A stretch of DNA of 64,000 nt from an uncultured Alphaproteobacteria bacterium. GTDB lineage: Bacteria > Pseudomonadota > Alphaproteobacteria > Rhizobiales > Kaistiaceae. The stretch is from the NCBI GenBank assembly GCA_963732845.1, contig CAVTBE010000012.1, positions 25,090 through 89,089 on the forward strand, written 5' to 3'. A program made the translations under genes and the position numbers. Shown here in pieces: positions 25,106 to 61,915 of the stretch. How positions within the stretch are numbered: position 1 is the first letter of the stretch; each line of letters begins with the position of its first letter. The notes under the pieces were generated by a model. It did not search any database. It was not told the origin of the DNA and saw only the letters and a program-made list of their open reading frames with translations.

Positions 25106-25954
25106 ATGTCCAATTCAAAGACCGTCATTTTCCAGGGCGAGCCCGGCGCCAATTCCGAGGTTGCCGCCCGCGAGGTCTACCCGAAGGCCGAGGCGGTTCC
25201 CTGCCCGACCTTCGAGGATTGCTTCGCCGCGGTCGAGAAGGGCACGGCCGATCTCGCCATGATTCCGATCGAGAATTCGGTCGCCGGCCGCGTCGCCGAC
25301 ATCCACCATCTCCTGCCCAATTCGCGGCTGCACATCATCGGCGAGCACTTTCTGCCCATCCGCTTCCAGCTCATGGCGCCGAAAGGCGCCACGCTGAAGA
25401 CGGTGAAGACCGTCCACAGCCACATCCACGCGCTCGGCCAGTGCCGCAACGTCATCCGCCAGCACCGCTGGAAGACCGTCGTCTCCGGCGATACCGCCGG
25501 TGCCGCCCGCGAGGTCGCCGAGGCCGGCAACATCACCCAGGCCGCGCTCGCCCCGGCCATGGCGGCGGAAATCTACGGCCTCGAAATCCTCAAGGAGAAT
25601 GTCGAGGACGCCGCCCACAACACCACGCGCTTCGTCATCCTGTCCAAGGACGATCAGCGCGCCCGCCGCGGCCGCGGCAAGGTCATCACCACCTTCGTCT
25701 TCCGCGTGCGCAACGTTCCCGCCGCCCTCTACAAGGCGATGGGCGGCTTCGCCACCAACGGCGTCAACATGACCAAGCTGGAGAGCTACCAGCTCGACGG
25801 CAAGTTCTTCGCCACCCAGTTCTATGCCGATGTCGAAGGCCACCCGGACGACCGCCCGCTGGCGCTGGCGCTGGAGGAGCTGGACTTCTTCTCCGCCCAC
25901 GTTCGCATCCTCGGCGTCTACGCGGCCAGCCCGCTCAGGGAAGGGCTGGAGTAG
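25106..25954 (+). CDS. pheA: Prephenate dehydratase
   Basis: 'VIFQGEPGANSE...AMIPIENSVAGRV' (PDT domain) plus a C-terminal ACT-like region. ATG 25106 was chosen because the track ORF extends upstream across the REP element. Confidence 0.9.
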   Translation: MSNSKTVIFQGEPGANSEVAAREVYPKAEAVPCPTFEDCFAAVEKGTADLAMIPIENSVAGRVADIHHLLPNSRLHIIGEHFLPIRFQLMAPKGATLKTVKTVHSHIHALGQCRNVIRQHRWKTVVSGDTAGAAREVAEAGNITQAALAPAMAAEIYGLEILKENVEDAAHNTTRFVILSKDDQRARRGRGKVITTFVFRVRNVPAALYKAMGGFATNGVNMTKLESYQLDGKFFATQFYADVEGHPDDRPLALALEELDFFSAHVRILGVYAASPLREGLE

Positions 25955-25955
25955 G
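25886..25955 (+). repeat. 70-bp direct repeat, copy 1 (authentic 3' end of pheA including the stop)
   Basis: 'ttcttctccgcccacgttcgcatcctcggcgtctacgcggccagcccgctcagggaagggctggagtagg' is 69/70 identical to 26642-26711. Confidence 0.95.
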
Positions 25956-25971
25956 TGAGCTGCACAGGCCT

Positions 25972-26108: not shown

Positions 26109-26459
26109 TCAGTGATCATGCGCCGCGCGAGCGGCCAGCGTCCGTTCGATCTCGCTGACGACGCCGTCGATATTGTCGAGCACGTCGTTGTTCCAGAAGC
26201 GAAGCACCAGATAGCCGGCCGAGCCGAGGGCATCGGACCGCTGCCGGTCTGCCTCGATTGCTTCTGCATGCTGGCTGCCATCGACTTCAACGACCAGTTT
26301 TGCTTCGACGGAAGCAAAATCAGCAATGAAGGTGCCGATCGGCACCTGCCGGCGAAATTTGACGCCGCCCACCTGTCTGTTGCGCAGCCGCAACCACAGA
26401 CGCCGCTCTGCATCGGTCGCGTTGTGGCGCAGGCGGCGGGCCATCCCGACGGGCTTCAT
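26109..26459 (-). CDS. DUF559 (Vsr-like endonuclease fold) domain protein
   Basis: 'ATDAERRLWLRLRNRQVGGVKFRRQVPIGTFIADFASVEAKLVVEVDGSQH...GYLVLRFWNNDVL' is the DUF559 signature. The start is placed at ATG 26457-26459; the longer track ORF begins inside a REP module. Confidence 0.8.
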   Translation of the reverse strand: MKPVGMARRLRHNATDAERRLWLRLRNRQVGGVKFRRQVPIGTFIADFASVEAKLVVEVDGSQHAEAIEADRQRSDALGSAGYLVLRFWNNDVLDNIDGVVSEIERTLAARAAHDH

Positions 26460-26506
26460 CCCCTCACCCTTTGTGCCTAATTCGCTCTGCTCATAAGGCA
26501 CAAATC

Positions 26507-26641: not shown

Positions 26642-26711
26642 TTCTTCTCCGCCCACGTTCGCATCCTCGGCGTCTACTCGGCCAGCCCGCTCAGGGAAGG
26701 GCTGGAGTAGG
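26642..26711 (+). repeat. 70-bp direct repeat, copy 2 (orphan duplicate of the pheA 3' end)
   Basis: 69/70 identical to 25886-25955, with a single g-to-t difference. The low-GC segment begins immediately after it. Confidence 0.95.
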
Positions 26712-26797
26712 GGGGCAGTGCGCCGGCCCAAAATTACGCGGAACGAACGAACTTCTTTAGCCCAAGGCTATCCTTAAAGCCGGGGTGCACTCGAAAA

Positions 26798-28216
26798 CTA
26801 GTAGCTGAACTCGTTGAAATAGATTCTCGGATCTCTGTACCGCCAGACGTATTCAGCACCGCCACCGCCACCGCCGGCAGAATAGAAGCCAATGATCGAG
26901 AATTCAAAAAGATCTCTCAGGGCCGCCTTCGGTTCGGAACCGGCCGCCAAAAGATGCTTTCTTGATTCCCACACACCGAAAAAATCATCTAGGTCGAATT
27001 GAAGGCTCTCTAGGCCCTTAAGCATATCAAGATATGTCTTATAATCGGGGATGTGCTTGTGTATCTCGTCATCTATCTCGCGATATAGATAATCAGAATA
27101 GCGCGGCTCGGCTTGATAAAGGTCGCTATTTATAAATTTCCCCGCGCCTTCGTGTGTATTTGTCTTATAAGACGCCAGTATTTCGTTTGAGAATTTTATC
27201 ATGTCACGAGGACGCAGGAACGTTCTATCAAGAAGATATTTGTATTTCTTCTGTCTTCCAGGCATGTCTTGCGCGTCGTCAAAGACATCTTCCCAGCGAG
27301 TCGCTCCCTCTAAAGCCACGGAGAAGCGTCGTTCCATTAGAGACTTCAGAGTCCTAGAATCTATGCCTATATCCCAGAGGATAGACGTCGAGAAATTCTC
27401 TGTTATCTTATTTTTATCTTCGAATTGCAGCCAATCATAAATGTCGTGACGTAGAAAAGTCACAACGTTAAGTTTTTTGCCCAGTTCCTTCGCTTTAATG
27501 TTTATGGCTCGCGCGGCCAAAAGCAATCCTATGAGTCGGAGTCTATAATTCGGATCTAATTTAGTAAAACCTAGATCAAGTTGATCAAAAAGAACGTAAT
27601 AGTTCAATTTTTGGTTTAATGAATTCAATATCTTCGTCGATAAACTGTTATTGATTTCTGAGAAATAGGTTGGAAGATATTCAATTGGTATTTGCGACAC
27701 ATTTCCTTCAACCGAGACTGCGGGCAGGTTAAATCCCGCGCGTCCGGACAGCTGCAATTTATGCTGTGGAGAAAAAATCTGGGTGACGTCTGGATCACGA
27801 GAGCCATAAGTGTCAACAACGAAGCTCTCAACGCTGGTGAGATAGTCTGCTGCACCCTCATTATATGGTTGTGAGCTATCATAATTGAGAAGTATCTTTG
27901 CAATAGTTATTAGGCACAGATACATCCAACTATTCATAAAACAAGATTCTTCAGGGACGCCCAATTGTTTCTGTCGATCGTGATAGTGCCAAGGATAATC
28001 GTTAAACGTATGGCCAAAAGCGAATTGGTCGTATTCGCGTGTCAGAAGTATCTTTTTGAAGATTGCGGTTTTGCCGCTTCCTTTCCGCCCAAGGACGCAG
28101 AACCGGCGATGCTGCAAAACATCAGCGTACGCCGGGTGGTCCTCGAAACAGTCGAGAAGCACTGGGTCATTATCAGCATCAGTACCACCGAAGGTCTCGA
28201 CCGCGGATAAGTTCAT
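26798..28216 (-). CDS. Orphan P-loop NTPase, 472 aa, low-GC horizontally acquired gene (function unknown; candidate defence protein)
   Basis: Long ORF in a segment of about 40% GC, against about 67% in the flanks. AGGAG lies 5 nt upstream of the ATG. Walker A 'GRKGSGKT' (aa 43-50), Walker B-like 'YYVLFDQLD' (aa 206-214), 'FLRPRDMIKF' motif. The C-terminal roughly 150 aa are helical and end with a Gly6 run. No TM segment or signal peptide. Confidence 0.85.
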   Translation of the reverse strand: MNLSAVETFGGTDADNDPVLLDCFEDHPAYADVLQHRRFCVLGRKGSGKTAIFKKILLTREYDQFAFGHTFNDYPWHYHDRQKQLGVPEESCFMNSWMYLCLITIAKILLNYDSSQPYNEGAADYLTSVESFVVDTYGSRDPDVTQIFSPQHKLQLSGRAGFNLPAVSVEGNVSQIPIEYLPTYFSEINNSLSTKILNSLNQKLNYYVLFDQLDLGFTKLDPNYRLRLIGLLLAARAINIKAKELGKKLNVVTFLRHDIYDWLQFEDKNKITENFSTSILWDIGIDSRTLKSLMERRFSVALEGATRWEDVFDDAQDMPGRQKKYKYLLDRTFLRPRDMIKFSNEILASYKTNTHEGAGKFINSDLYQAEPRYSDYLYREIDDEIHKHIPDYKTYLDMLKGLESLQFDLDDFFGVWESRKHLLAAGSEPKAALRDLFEFSIIGFYSAGGGGGGAEYVWRYRDPRIYFNEFSY

Positions 28217-28232
28217 TGGAACTCCTAAATCG

Positions 28233-28322: not shown

Positions 28323-28670
28323 CTACCCCCACCACCCCGCCATCGCCTTCTTCACCGCCGTCCGTTCGGCCCGCCCCAGCTTCCCGATGCGGCGCAGGAT
28401 GTGCTCCGGCTCCACCGTCGCGATCTTGACCGTGCGCACCATCGACGGGCCGGGCAGGCCGGCGCCGGCGAGGTCGCGGATGGTCACGTCGCCGTCGCGC
28501 CGTTCCTTGGCCGCGCCGGTGATCATGACGAGCCAGACATAGCCCTCGGCATGGAGCGCCGCGCTGGAGACGACGAGCGCCGGCCGGCGCTTCTCCGCCA
28601 GCCGGTCCGAATAGGGGAACGGCACCACCACCACGTCGAACGGACGGAACGCCGCCTCAGAGGCGGCCAT
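28323..28670 (-). CDS. mazF: PemK/MazF-family type II toxin (endoribonuclease)
   Basis: 'FDVVVVPFPYSDRLAEKRRPALVVSS...VWLVMITG...GLPGPSMVRTVKIATVE' is the MazF/PemK pattern. It overlaps the upstream antitoxin by 14 nt. Confidence 0.8.
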   Translation of the reverse strand: MAASEAAFRPFDVVVVPFPYSDRLAEKRRPALVVSSAALHAEGYVWLVMITGAAKERRDGDVTIRDLAGAGLPGPSMVRTVKIATVEPEHILRRIGKLGRAERTAVKKAMAGWWG

Positions 28671-28902
28671 AGAGCGCCTCGTCCTCGTCCGAGGTCCATT
28701 CGCTGAAGCTGGCGAAGGGATCGTCCTCTTGCGGCCTCACCTTGGCCAGCGTCACCGCCCCCGTCTCGCCGATCTTGAAGCGGATGAGGTCGCCGGTCTT
28801 CAGACCTAATTTGTCGCGCACAGCCTTGGGGATCACCGTCTGCCCCTTGCTCGACAGGCGCGATTGCACATCCGACATGGGCTCGCCTCCATGGTAAGAC
28901 AT
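28657..28902 (-). CDS. mazE: AbrB/MazE/SpoVT-family antitoxin
   Basis: 'SKGQTVIPKAVRDKLGLKTGDLIRFKI' is a SpoVT-AbrB swapped-hairpin motif, and the C-terminus is acidic. The true start may be the internal ATG at 28876-28878. Confidence 0.8.
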   Translation of the reverse strand: MSYHGGEPMSDVQSRLSSKGQTVIPKAVRDKLGLKTGDLIRFKIGETGAVTLAKVRPQEDDPFASFSEWTSDEDEALYGRL

Positions 28903-29231
28903 TCTTACCGTCTTACATAACAGCCGGTATGAGTATTCTCAAGCGGTCATGGAATGAGCGGCTCCGCAGCGCAGCGACGCGAACTTCGGGAGGGGGGTGA
29001 ACGCGCTGAAGTACCCAGACCCTCTCCCAAATGGTTTCGCCGTTTCGACCTTCCCACAAGGGAAGGGTTGGTCGGTGCTTGCCGCTTGCTCCATCCCTCC
29101 ACCGCGCGAGCGCGGGGAGGGGGGACCATGCGAGCCGCAGGCGAAGCATGGTGGGTGGGGGCGACCCGGACGCGCGAAAAGACACCCCACCCGTCTCCTC
29201 GCTTCGCTCGGAGCCACCCTCCCCGGAACGG

Positions 29232-30420
29232 CAGGGGAATTGCATGTGGGGTTGGGAGGGCTGTTGCCAATTTCGGCGAACAGATTCTGAGGGTCTCTCC
29301 GCGTTTTCGGGGAGAGAGCCATGGAGAGGTTCAAGGACTGCTTCGCGGATTTGCCTGATCCGCGCGCGGCCAACGCGATGCACGATCTCACCGAGGTGCT
29401 GTTCGTCGCGCTGGCGGCGCTGTTGTGCGGGGCAGAAGGCTGCGTCGACATGGCCGACTTCGGCCGCGCCAAGGAGGGGCTGTTGCGGCAGGTATTGCGC
29501 CTGGAGCACGGCATCCCCAGCCACGACACCTTCAGCCGGGTGTTCCGGGTACTGCGGCCGGAGGCCTTCGAGGCCGCCTTCCGCCGCTTCATGGCCGCCT
29601 TCGGGCGGGCCAGCCGCGTCCGCGGAGTGGTGGCGATCGACGGCAAGGCGGTCAAGGGCGCCTACGGCCGCGGCCGCAAGACGACACCGCTGCATCTGGT
29701 CAACGTGTGGGCGGCCGAGGCCCGGCTGGCTCTGGCGCAACACACCGCTCCCGGCCGCAACGAGACGGCCGGCGTCCTCGAGGCCCTCGGGCTGTTGTCG
29801 CTCAAGGGCTGCATCGTCACGGCTGATGCCCTGCATTGCCGCGCCGACACCGCCCAGGCCATCCGCGACGCCGAGGCCGACTACGTGCTCGCCCTCAAGG
29901 AGAACCATCCCAAGCTGTGGGCAGATGCCTGTCAGACGATCGTAGGCGCCAAGCGGTCCGACCAAGCCTGCACCGAACAGCCGATCAGCCATGGCCGTCA
30001 CGAATGGCGCCAGATCGTCGTGGTGGGGACCCTCGGCCTCGGCCGCAAGCATGGCTTCCCCGCCCTGCGTGCCGTGGCCCGTCTCACCGCGCGGCGCACG
30101 CTCGACGGCGGCCAAAGCGAGGAGACGGTCCGCTACTTCCTGCTCTCCCGCCGCTTCTCCGCCAAGCGCCTGCTCACCATCGTGCGCCAGCACTGGGGCA
30201 TCGAGAACCAACTGCACTGGGTGCTCGACGTCATCCTCAACGAGGATCGCGCCAGGAACCGCAAAGATCACGGGCCCGAGAACATCGCCATCCTCAGAAA
30301 GCTTGCCCTCAACCTGCTGCGCTCCCACCCCGACACAGCTTCCATCCGACGCAAGGTTAAACGCGCCGCCTGGGACGATGCCTTCCTCCTCTCTCTCCTC
30401 GCCCACATGCGATAGCCCTG
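29232..30420 (+). mobile_element. Intact ISAs1-family insertion sequence (1189 bp) with a 10-bp target-site duplication
   Basis: IRL 'caggggaattgcatgtgggg' matches the reverse complement of IRR 'cagggctatcgcatgtgggc' at 16/20. It is flanked by the perfect direct repeat CCCGGAACGG (29222-29231 and 30421-30430). Confidence 0.85.
29321..30415 (+). CDS. ISAs1-family (H-repeat-associated) DDE transposase
   Basis: 'FADLPDPRAANAMHDLTEVLFVALAALLCGAEGCVDMADFG', 'GIPSHDTFSRVF', 'VTADALHC' and 'HWGIENQLHWVLDVILNEDRARNR' are ISAs1 transposase signatures. The ORF is uninterrupted. Confidence 0.9.
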   Translation: MERFKDCFADLPDPRAANAMHDLTEVLFVALAALLCGAEGCVDMADFGRAKEGLLRQVLRLEHGIPSHDTFSRVFRVLRPEAFEAAFRRFMAAFGRASRVRGVVAIDGKAVKGAYGRGRKTTPLHLVNVWAAEARLALAQHTAPGRNETAGVLEALGLLSLKGCIVTADALHCRADTAQAIRDAEADYVLALKENHPKLWADACQTIVGAKRSDQACTEQPISHGRHEWRQIVVVGTLGLGRKHGFPALRAVARLTARRTLDGGQSEETVRYFLLSRRFSAKRLLTIVRQHWGIENQLHWVLDVILNEDRARNRKDHGPENIAILRKLALNLLRSHPDTASIRRKVKRAAWDDAFLLSLLAHMR

Positions 30421-30430
30421 CCCGGAACGG

Positions 30431-31139
30431 GGAGGGATGGGTGCTTGCGCCGGCTCCGTGCTTGCTGCCCAAAAATACTTATCCCCGCTCTCCGAACCTG
30501 ACGGATAATGCTCGTCATCCCCGCCCGCGAAGGGGCGCGCTCATGAGGCGTCTTGCAGCGTGGGGCGGGGTGCGGTGCCCCCGCGCTCCGGATTCGCAGT
30601 CCGGCCCTCGGGGCGTTCCCGGCGGGACCGTCGGCACTACGACCGGCCGCCGCAAGGCCTAAGCTCTTTTCTCCCGAGGAAAGGGTGCAGCGCCTGCTGG
30701 GAGACGGAAGAAAATCGCCGCGGCGGGCGCTCGGGTAGAGTGCCCCCAGTTTTCGCGGAGTAACCGCACGGCATTCGCCGGGCGCCCGCCACCCCCTCGT
30801 CTCCGACAAGAGGCGAGGAGCGCCGCAAGGCGCGACAGGGACGAAAGAAGTGTTCATGCCCCGGTGCGGATCGCGCGCGGGAACGAGATTTCGTGTCCAG
30901 GCGCGGTGCGGCACGAAGTGCTGAACCGCAGACCCGGGACCGGCGCGCCGAATGGACCCCGGATCTGCGAAGCAGCGTTCCACGCTGCATCGCGTCGGGG
31001 GAACGGAGACGTCGCCCACCGTTCGTCCCCGCGGAGGCGGGGACCCAGGCGCGAGTCGCCGTTGAGCGAAGTGCCTCTTGCCTGTCCGGCCTGGATGCCC
31101 GCAGGCGCGGGCACGAACGGATCTTGGCGCGCCGCCGCC
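30431..31139. repeat. About 700-bp repeat-dense non-coding spacer
   Basis: No ORF has coding-like composition. Translations give the spurious-ORF motifs typical of dispersed alphaproteobacterial repeats ('QHFVPHRAWTRN', 'GPRLRGDE', 'WMPAGAGTNG'). Confidence 0.6.
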
Positions 31140-35904: not shown

Positions 35905-36000
35905 GGGAGGCTGGCGACGGACGTGTCGCTCGCCAACCGGGTCAGGTCCGGAAGGAAGCAGCCCTAACGAGTTTCGGCGCGGGTCGCCTGCCAGTCTCCC
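35905..36000 (+). ncRNA. ffs: Signal recognition particle RNA (4.5S, small bacterial type)
   Basis: Contains the universal domain IV core 'GGUCAGGUCCGGAAGGAAGCAGCC'. The 5' end 'gggaggctggcgac' pairs with the 3' end 'gtcgcctgccagtctccc'. It sits upstream of dnaX, a position I recall as usual in alphaproteobacteria. Confidence 0.85.
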
Positions 36001-60835: not shown

Positions 60836-60912
60836 GCGCCCGTAGCTCAGCTGGATAGAGCACCAGACTACGAATCTGGGGGTCAGGGGTTCGAATCCCT
60901 TCGGGCGCGCCA
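60836..60912 (+). tRNA. tRNA-Arg (anticodon ACG)
   Basis: Cloverleaf: acceptor GCGCCCG/CGGGCGC, D-arm 'tagctcagctggatagagc', anticodon stem-loop 'ccaga-CTACGAA-tctgg', T-arm 'caggggttcgaatccctt', encoded CCA. Confidence 0.9.
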
Positions 60913-60949: not shown

Positions 60950-61915
60950 TCATGAGCCGGTTTGCATCTGGTTTGCAGAATTGGTTCGTGAGGCGTTCTC
61001 CAGCTTGCTGATCGCCGCGTCAGCCAAATGACGCGTTCGAGAAAGGTATCGTTCCAGGATCAAGTCCACGGTCTTCAACGAGTGCCCCGTGATCGTTGCA
61101 ATCTCCGGGACCGTGCAGCTTGCTTCCGCGAGCATCGTTACGGCGGTACCGCGCAGGTCGTGGAAGTGGAGGCCAGAGATTCCTGCTGCGGCTGATGCCC
61201 GTGCCCATTGCGCCGCGAAATAGCGCTTCTTAAATGGTCGGCCGGATTTCGTGACGAGGATTACAGCAGCGTCACGCGACAACCCGTCGAGCATCTCGCG
61301 TAGTGCAGTTGTGCAGGGAATTGCCACGCGCCGACCGGTCTTGCCTTGGCGTATCGACAAGGCCTTTCCATCGTACTGGCTCCACGCGAACCTCAGAATG
61401 TCCGCCTGCCTCTGCCCCGTGTGCAGCGCGAGCAGCATCGCGCGCCGCATTTCGACTGGGGCAACCTTCATAAATGAGCCGATCTGCTCCGGCAGCCAGA
61501 TCGCGTCCGAACGATCTACACGATACAGACGCTTGATGCCCACAAGATGGTTTTGATCGATGAGCGCTCGGTCGCGTCCCCAGGTAAGCATCGCCGAAAC
61601 TGCGGATATCCTGTGATCGGCCTCTCTCGCGCCCGATTTTGCGGCGACGGCATCGCGCCATTCAATGAAGTCTCGTCGCACCCGAGGGTCATTTAGTGCG
61701 GCGATCGGAAGGTCCGAGAATTCTCGTTCGGCGGCGAGTAACAGCCGCTTGTATTCAGCACGAGTGCTGTCAGCTAGTCGAGCAAACTCAGGCGACAGGG
61801 TATAGTCACGAACGAGCCCGTCGAACCTCCCAGCCAATCTGTCATGCAACAATTTCTCCGCTGCAGCCACGCATGCCAAAAACTCGAGCGAGCCCGGAGC
61901 TCCGCTAAGTCTCAT
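60950..61915 (-). CDS. int: Tyrosine recombinase / phage-type integrase
   Basis: 321 aa. 'LLALHTGQRQADI' and 'HFHDLRGTAVTMLAEA...ITGHS...ILERY' give the R..HxxR..Y catalytic set. It lies 38 nt from the 3' end of tRNA-Arg. Confidence 0.85.
   Translation of the reverse strand: MRLSGAPGSLEFLACVAAAEKLLHDRLAGRFDGLVRDYTLSPEFARLADSTRAEYKRLLLAAEREFSDLPIAALNDPRVRRDFIEWRDAVAAKSGAREADHRISAVSAMLTWGRDRALIDQNHLVGIKRLYRVDRSDAIWLPEQIGSFMKVAPVEMRRAMLLALHTGQRQADILRFAWSQYDGKALSIRQGKTGRRVAIPCTTALREMLDGLSRDAAVILVTKSGRPFKKRYFAAQWARASAAAGISGLHFHDLRGTAVTMLAEASCTVPEIATITGHSLKTVDLILERYLSRTRHLADAAISKLENASRTNSANQMQTGS

Follow-up and report, generated by a model that had tools for sequence, protein, structure and literature searches.

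The window analysed here is a stretch of 64,000 nt from the genome of an uncultured alphaproteobacterium of the family Kaistiaceae (GenBank assembly GCA_963732845.1, contig CAVTBE010000012.1, positions 25,090 to 89,089 of the forward strand). Its minus strand carries an open reading frame (ORF; 26798..28216) for a P-loop ATPase of 472 aa, which starts with ATG and ends prematurely at the TAG at 26800-26798. A preliminary description of this DNA, made from the letters alone, had given the ORF at these positions and with this length, along with its Walker A, YYVLFDQLD, FLRPRD (aa 333-338) and Gly6 motifs, all of which are present; it had overlooked a frameshift that removes the conserved tail of the protein. 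The gene and its parts are listed below, in positions of the window.

26734..28216, minus strand: full footprint of the Fun/Z-family (NCBIfam NF047389) ATPase gene; deletion of one T gives a protein of 493 aa
28217..28262, minus strand: AT-rich 5′ leader, with the Shine-Dalgarno sequence AGGAG (28222-28226) 5 nt before the ATG; GC step at about 28260
28067..28090, minus strand: Walker A (P-loop) GRKGSGKT, aa 43-50; G43, G46, G48 and K49 do not vary within the clade and are shared by Bacillus FunZ, P2 Fun(Z) and DS-41
27575..27601, minus strand: Walker B strand YYVLFDQLD, aa 206-214; D211 and D214 are the same throughout the family and the motif lies on model strand 205-210
27437..27457, minus strand: sensor-1-like FLRHDIY, aa 254-260, at the end of strand beta-4; R256, D258 and I259 are clade-invariant
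27203..27214, minus strand: RPRD, aa 335-338, where the lid helix begins; 7/7 compared members have P336 and R337
26858..26875, minus strand: Gly6 tract, aa 448-453, at the tip of the beta-hairpin “wing”; G448, G449, G452 and G453 are clade-invariant
26808..26809, minus strand: frameshift site, one extra T in GAG-TT-CAGC just past codon E469, located by three-frame translation against homologue tails
26734..26807, minus strand: out-of-frame remnant of the conserved C-terminal tail, SATSFRVHPGFKDSLGLKKFVRSA, with its stop TAA at 26736-26734

The footprint of the gene has a GC content of 44.5%, as against 66.0% for the whole window, and the bin 27001-28000 (0.415) is the only one of 64 one-kb bins to fall below 0.578. 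The composition changes in steps at about 26720-26740 and 28260 (40-nt windows), matching the boundaries at 26712 and 28260 that had been proposed for a low-GC gene in high-GC DNA. Since the GC content at third codon positions (GC3) of the ATPase gene is 0.465, compared with 0.72-0.94 in seven neighbouring genes, an amino-acid bias alone is insufficient to account for the difference, and the codon usage is foreign. The AT-rich 5′ leader came in together with the gene; no conservation was seen among relatives in the DNA upstream of it.

The window protein matches the NCBIfam model NF047389, “P-loop ATPase, Sll1717 family”, with 283.4 bits (E 4e-84) over aa 9-465, where the curated cut-off for whole proteins is 75 bits. 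The Fun(Z) protein of phage P2 scores 209.3 bits against the same model over positions 1-452 of 454. Furthermore, hhalign aligns the profile of the clade of close relatives to which the window protein belongs with P2 Fun(Z) at 97.6% probability (E 2.9e-12) over 456 columns, covering residues 22-524 of 528, and in a direct BLASTP comparison, the window protein and P2 Fun(Z) are 21% identical over 412 aa (E 3e-5). Judged by these profile comparisons, the “Sll1717 family” and the Fun/Z family are one and the same, and the window protein clearly belongs to it. A full-length match to a PHROG was also obtained. A literature search found no paper that mentions the name “Sll1717”.

A weak match to the NCBIfam model “DS41_1_antiphage” pointed to a second known relative, the Escherichia coli protein DS-41, which scores 92 bits against NF047389 over the 399 aa available and thus lies above the cut-off. 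Against the DS-41 equivalog model NF053860, with a cut-off of 370 bits, the window protein scores 23 bits (aa 207-380 only), or 22.8 bits when its reading frame is restored. It is neither a DS-41 equivalog nor, at 21% identity, close to P2 Fun(Z). The anti-phage system finder PADLOC v2, which the preliminary description had proposed as a check, assigned neither the window protein nor P2 Fun(Z), DS-41 and the plasmid copies described below to any family; this silence is uninformative because PADLOC v2 has no Fun/Z model.

Of the families that had been suggested by eye (KAP-like, STAND-like or Sll1717-like), the last is the one that holds. The protein gave no Pfam KAP match at E<=1 and has no transmembrane helices inserted in its P-loop domain. 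Its only Pfam matches, nSTAND3 (13.7 bits) and nSTAND1 (12.8 bits), are sub-threshold, far under the gathering scores of about 27, and membership of the STAND NTPases was likewise rejected. The gene had also been called an undescribed orphan. That claim of novelty fails by a test which the preliminary description had itself proposed, since the profile match is confident and the defence family already has a name; the family includes the abortive infection (Abi) protein Fun/Z of P2, known for decades. Nor is the gene an orphan: a HMMER search over 1.84 billion representatives returned 3,935 clusters (counted at 50% identity) at E<=1e-3 and 2,213 at E<=1e-10.

Across seven diverse members, the window protein included, G43, G46, G48, K49, D211, D214, W281, P336 and R337 are invariant, and the window protein holds the whole family motif set (GxxGxGK[TS], D-x-x-D and the PR of the lid). 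FLRHDIY pairs in the alignment with LIRPDIF of P2 Fun(Z), and its place in the AAA+ topology of the predicted structure would make it sensor 1. The RPRD motif has its counterparts in YRPRDIL of P2 Fun(Z) and SPRELI of DS-41, and its arginine appears sensor-2-like, with a presumed sensor-2 role.

P2 Fun(Z) (528 aa, as against 493 aa for the restored window protein) thus belongs to the same NCBIfam family and is homologous from end to end, with the Walker A, the D..D Walker B, LRxDI[FY], RPRD, YSxYL and the C-terminal tail in common. Both are encoded by stand-alone genes that are strongly AT-rich for their replicons (GC of P2 fun(Z), 0.33; of the P2 genome, 0.50). However, P2 Fun(Z) is without the FGGxDADxD, GHTFxDYPWHHHD and FEDKNKITE motifs and the Gly6 wing of the window clade, its identity to the window protein is about 21%, and its gene is prophage-borne, whereas the window copy is chromosomal and frameshifted. 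Flanking inverted repeats, which Nilsson 2004 reports for fun of P2, were not found at the window copy: the best repeat there is 7 nt long (p = 0.98), that at P2 is 8 nt, and p <= 0.05 was reached in only 7/64 loci. DS-41 resembles the window protein as a single-gene ATPase of about 500 aa that lies above the NF047389 cut-off, with a colinear layout and PR[DE]hIK in common, but hhalign aligns only about 100 columns at 48% probability and the insert between Walker A and Walker B is a different one.

The premature end of the window ORF results from one extra T. Homologues are about 496 aa long and end in ...FNExAxxFRVHxGFKExLGLK..., whereas the window ORF terminates in ...FNEFSY*, without the in-frame tail F-R-V-H-x-G-h...L-x-L; the tail SATSFRVHPGFKDSLGLKKFVRSA* is encoded in the next frame, immediately beyond the called stop. 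Removal of one T restores the reading frame to ...FNESATSFRVHPGFKDSLGLKKFVRSA* and raises the NF047389 score from 283.4 bits (profile positions 1-436 of 454) to 296.9 bits (1-454 of 454), and four intact relatives likewise span the profile to its last position (454/454; P2 Fun(Z), 452/454). The loss of the tail bears on the integrity of the allele, not on family membership. Within the clade, the tail hardly varies (H, G, L, L), and it can still be made out in Bacillus FunZ and in P2 Fun(Z); in the model of the intact Bradyrhizobium homologue P0012, it forms a strand (477-479) and a helix (481-487) with a predicted local distance difference test score (pLDDT) of about 88-94.

The other 469 codons of the gene are intact and retain every clade-invariant residue, so the lesion must be either very recent or an assembly error; what the window shows is a pseudogene of recent origin, an allele for a truncated protein, or a sequencing error. 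Unless the assembly introduced the extra base, the gene is probably impaired in its present form, and we doubt that the allele as it stands is active. The locus could even be a decaying relic, horizontally acquired, inactivated by the frameshift and encoding nothing functional today. The single-nucleotide insertion does remove 24 conserved residues of a tail that both the core clade and P2 Fun(Z) keep and that is confidently structured in an intact homologue, and decay is common in the family, with 11/76 copies (about 14%) split or truncated. Yet, besides the intact codons and invariant residues, the Shine-Dalgarno sequence and the start codon are in place, the site of the frameshift is a mere TT dinucleotide, and a protein without the tail might keep its activity or be deregulated. 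A relic is thus a serious possibility, if somewhat short of an even one.

The structures predicted by AlphaFold for the window protein (pLDDT 89, predicted template modelling score 0.88) and for an intact homologue (pLDDT 87) consist of a five-stranded P-loop core with an insert of about 135 aa between beta-2 and Walker B, a helical lid that starts at RPRD, a helical bundle, and a C-terminal helix-helix-hairpin with the Gly6 tract at its tip. The strands of this wing (444-446 and 455-457) stand on either side of the glycines and follow helices 409-418 and 429-438. On these models, the C-terminal module is winged-helix-like and the core is an AAA+ of the ORC/Cdc6-like kind with intact Walker A and B. 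As the preliminary description had stated, the protein has no convincing transmembrane segment, the maximum of a 19-residue Kyte-Doolittle scan (1.63 at aa 92-110) falling on a buried helix of the ATPase core (pLDDT about 98), and no enzymatic effector domain is recognisable in the protein or in the models.

The best Foldseek matches, at about 10% identity, are the archaeal AAA+ protein SSO1545 (template modelling (TM) score 0.51), DNA-bound Orc1/Cdc6 and BrxC of the BREX system; the list also includes MalT and the Dark apoptosome. The AAA+ matches from this second proposed check are of low TM-score. Those of the Orc1/Cdc6 type have E-values of 2e-4 to 4e-4 and TM-scores of 0.35-0.51, and the corresponding sequence profiles all stay below their cut-offs (ORC-CDC6-like, 21 bits vs 27 for the family member P0132; TIGR02928, 19.6 bits vs 181 for Bacillus FunZ). 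Orc1/Cdc6, SSO1545 and BrxC share with the window protein the arrangement of AAA+ core, lid and C-terminal winged helix, but they differ in the 135-aa insert of the window protein, and TM-scores of 0.3-0.5 go with identities of 8-14%. The likeness to Orc1/Cdc6 initiators implies no replication role. An assignment as BrxC was rejected: PADLOC gave no match, the resemblance is structural only (9zdx_C, E 3e-4, TM 0.37) and BREX partners are absent. Viral folds searched in BFVD gave generic AAA+ and clamp-loader matches only, and searches of PDB sequences with the protein and with the profile gave only matches at chance or P-loop level, e.g., LRRK2 Roc.

The genes and elements around the ATPase gene, which the preliminary description had named as a MazEF pair, a DUF559 gene, an insertion sequence, repeats of the repetitive extragenic palindromic (REP) type and pheA, agree with the results of Pfam and repeat searches.

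28323-28670, minus strand: PemK/MazF toxin (Pfam)
28657-28902, minus strand: MazE/PrlF-like antitoxin (Pfam)
26109-26501: DUF559 gene (Pfam), with REP-like repeats around it
29217-30437: ISAs1-family element with transposase 29321-30415, plus strand (DDE_Tnp_1_assoc, DDE_Tnp_1), and 22-nt repeats at 29217-29238 and 30416-30437
26642..26716, plus strand: 75-nt repeat of the 3′ end of the pheA-like gene, 96% identical to the first copy at 25886-25960

The block SBP-kdsB-pheA is kept in relatives, and synteny with 80 pheA-bearing loci stops at pheA. Since nothing past pheA is common to any of these 80 related loci, the ATPase gene sits in a variable region. The relatives in this PheA-based search are 67-81% identical and show the breakpoint, but no true empty site. 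The native DNA has its right-hand edge at the second copy of the pheA end, which stops 17 nt from the restored ATPase stop. The ATPase gene arrived as a gene-sized, AT-rich insert of about 1.55 kb just downstream of SBP-kdsB-pheA, and the foreign GC3, the sharp GC steps and the break in synteny bear out the horizontal acquisition that had been proposed. That the gene is a Fun/Z-family member and was acquired in this way we regard as nearly certain; on its sequence, it is a horizontally acquired chromosomal copy of a Fun/Z-family gene.

The 75-nt direct repeat includes the stop codon of the pheA-like gene, and between its copies lie the DUF559 gene and several REP-like palindromic units. This duplication resembles an att-type or recombination scar, but the DNA between the two copies holds no integrase, and an exact search for the repeat in metagenomes gave no match. 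The ISAs1 element is probably multicopy in this genome, since an identical transposase protein occurs on 6 contigs. Further along the window, a tRNA-Arg(ACG) gene (60836-60912) is directly followed by a tyrosine-integrase-like ORF (60950-61915, minus strand), and the GC content falls to 0.58-0.59; the segment 60836-64000 is probably an integrative island or prophage at the tRNA that continues past the end of the window. An ordinary, unrelated gene for the bacterial small signal recognition particle RNA is found at 35908-36000 (Rfam RF00169, 56 bits).

The MazEF pair lies upstream on the strand of the ATPase gene, which begins 106 nt downstream of mazF with no terminator-like site predicted in between on this strand, an arrangement that might suggest a three-gene module, e.g., one where the ATPase regulates or senses MazF. 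However, the pair has the composition of native genes (GC3 0.83-0.94), whereas the ATPase gene is foreign (GC3 0.47), and no MazE/MazF cluster recurs beside the family in 80 genome loci. Such a module is barely credible and effectively refuted: MazEF is not part of the ATPase unit. The argument that the neighbourhood is a defence hotspot is accordingly weak, as MazEF is unassociated with the family elsewhere and the flanks in the 80 loci are mostly unrelated, with many housekeeping genes.

Almost all clusters of the family are stand-alone proteins of about 470-510 aa, and the closest 120 homologues of the window protein are 50-59% identical over their full length. The 80 genome loci, found by an alignment-based genome scan (a scan with a single-protein pattern gave no relatives), cover more than 15 phyla, one archaeon among them. 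No neighbour is conserved across them, the best cluster recurring in 7/80, and the description of the gene as a single-gene unit stands. In 77/80 loci, the GC content of the gene lies at least 5 points under that of its flanks (median -14), and in 56/59 loci the GC3 is lower as well; the GC3 of the gene nonetheless tracks that of the host (Spearman 0.59). This family-wide AT-richness suggests either constant turnover or selection for it, e.g., through xenogeneic silencing or low expression. Searches of plasmids with tblastn found 50%-identical copies on conjugative IncF plasmids of Klebsiella, among them WP_110409175.1, and copies of about 23% identity on conjugative plasmids of Bacillus, labelled “FunZ”, a name that goes back to fun(Z) of phage P2, while the sole phage match is a P2-like Klebsiella phage. 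A census of 137 flanking ORFs, which counts families and not members, brought up scattered defence matches (Gabija/OLD-like, Pycsar, DrmD, mads and PDC candidates) next to integrases, RES toxins and many housekeeping genes. The preliminary description had proposed the contexts of homologues as a further check; defence genes do occur there, but many neighbours are housekeeping genes. The family gene is an accessory gene that stands alone and is highly mobile, without being tightly bound to defence islands.

Two rare relatives carry fused domains. In P0128 (L165 6001-8895), the top-scoring representative in the library, an ATPase of the clade is followed by a C-terminal GT4-conflict glycosyltransferase (E 8e-128); its gene lies in a stretch dense in mobile genetic elements (integrases, IS66 elements) on a complete chromosome of 14 Mb. 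In P0204 (L166 350-2443), two EAD7 adaptor domains are inserted between Walker A and the YPW motif (E 4e-38). EAD7-type domains recruit effectors in NTP-dependent conflict systems (PMC7159879).

Two members of the family have measured phenotypes. According to the P2 GenBank note on fun(Z), the cloned gene blocks the growth of phage T5; it is nonessential, acts in lysogenic conversion and confers sensitivity to fluorodeoxyuridine (FUdR). The range of this Abi protein takes in T5, T-even, Vequintavirinae and Felixounavirus phages. In the BASEL study, Fun/Z, a classical single-gene Abi system, inhibits all Tevenvirinae, Vequintavirinae and Markadamsvirinae as well as Bas63 (PMC8594841). DS-41 (“AAA2”, WP_033812887.1), a single E. 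coli gene for 502 aa found with DefensePredictor (Science 2026), protects against T4 by 5.3 logs, Bas1 by 5.0 and Bas63 by 3.6 (PMC13092281). Its authors scored DS-41 as a remote homologue of Avs1B, and their paper makes no mention of Fun/Z (PMC13092281). As P2 Fun/Z and DS-41 experimentally block phages, the defence or abortive-infection role put forward for the window gene is its best reading. By analogy with these two proteins, we consider an anti-phage role of the clade reasonably likely, and family identity together with the anti-phage reading can be held with good confidence.

A role outside immunity, be it in the maintenance of mobile elements, in addiction or as a regulatory ATPase, would mean that Fun/Z and DS-41 exclude phages only incidentally or as a trait of their own branches. 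The very high conservation across phyla would be in keeping with it, as would the many housekeeping genes in the flanks, the plasmid copies that lie beside replication and recombination genes, and the lack of a PADLOC match, although the latter tells nothing for the reason given above. We judge this quite improbable, for the two phenotypes were measured on independent members, and the gene in P2 occupies the Z/fun hotspot, a known reservoir of defence genes; fusions to domains of conflict systems and the patchy, AT-rich, single-gene distribution likewise speak for immunity.

If the clade acts as an anti-phage system, the ATPase would be a nucleotide-dependent switch, in which a cue of infection leads to ATP-dependent oligomerisation, and the assembled ATPase itself would halt both phage development and host growth. 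For such an Abi-type ATP-switch mechanism, we see about an even chance. A role as sensor or switch fits because rare relatives fuse the module to effector or adaptor domains (GT4-conflict, EAD7). The cue would probably be linked to the takeover of DNA or nucleotide metabolism by the phage, as the phages on which P2 Fun(Z) acts are large and virulent (T5-like, T-even and others) and the protein makes its host sensitive to FUdR. The arrest might then most plausibly fall on DNA replication, by way of the winged-helix or ORC-like surfaces. The FUdR effect, the preference for large virulent phages that remodel DNA and nucleotide metabolism, and the ORC-like fold all suggest a link with DNA or nucleotide metabolism, but action at the level of DNA or replication is a tentative proposal that may well be wrong.

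The STAND and NLR-like proteins (Avs, nSTAND) offer a related model, in that they combine a P-loop switch with helical and winged-helix modules and act on their own in defence, and some relatives of the window protein have an effector-associated domain. The window protein differs in being without a TPR, LRR or WD40 sensor and without a fused nuclease, protease or TIR effector. In a strict version of this model, the ATPase would be a sensor only, its assembly would be harmless, and a separate effector, a host factor or the product of a distant gene, would be needed. The EAD7 adaptors, which recruit effectors through homotypic pairing, and the fused GT4-conflict enzyme of the rare relatives speak for this version, and the sub-threshold nSTAND1 and nSTAND3 matches, the presence of MalT and the Dark apoptosome in the Foldseek list, and the scoring of DS-41 as a remote Avs1B homologue point the same way. 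On the other hand, a single cloned gene, be it that of P2 Fun(Z) or of DS-41, protects E. coli. No partner is conserved in the 80 loci, GT4 genes are absent from the window and from the surroundings of all 84 loci searched, and no EAD7 partner adjoins P0204. A sensor-only ATPase is, therefore, rather unlikely.

Several points weigh against an anti-phage Abi switch of the kind preferred here. The mechanism of Fun/Z was given as unknown in the BASEL study (2021) (PMC8594841), a literature search for a mechanistic paper on Fun/Z found none, and the mechanistic steps set out above are our own inference. The identity of the clade with P2 Fun(Z) and DS-41 is just 21-25%, it fails the DS-41 model, and a literature search found no anti-phage test of any member of this highly conserved clade. 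For an immune sensor, the conservation of the clade is unusual (47-59% identity in more than 15 phyla), and in the neighbourhood census, the defence genes are only scattered amid many housekeeping genes. As for the predicted structure, the winged-helix region is not basic (net +1) and the Foldseek TM-scores are low (0.3-0.5). Finally, the window allele itself is without the conserved, structured 24-aa tail.

The window clade, the members of which are always AT-rich and solitary, may also be a functionally distinct branch of Fun/Z, although we think this unlikely. The clade-specific motifs rich in Asp, His and aromatic residues (FGGxDADxD, GHTFxDYPWHHHD and FEDKNKITE) may form an additional catalytic or ligand-sensing site. 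If the clade were such a branch, this would mean a new anti-phage mechanism, e.g., interference with replication or sensing of nucleotide pools, and would explain how Fun/Z-type proteins work.

Taken alone, the locus is ordinary: it holds a probably damaged gene for a phage-exclusion ATPase of a known, single-gene type. The view across the family brings together three labels, the NCBI “Sll1717 family”, the classical Abi gene Fun/Z of P2 and the newly validated DS-41 of E. coli. About 3,900 clusters of likely anti-phage genes are invisible to PADLOC v2, because PADLOC-DB v2.0.0 has no model to detect them. Handles on the mechanism of Fun/Z are provided by the ORC/Cdc6-like fold, the invariant motifs, the conserved tail and, in rare relatives, the fusions to GT4 or EAD7, and the conserved clade is tractable material with which to address that question.

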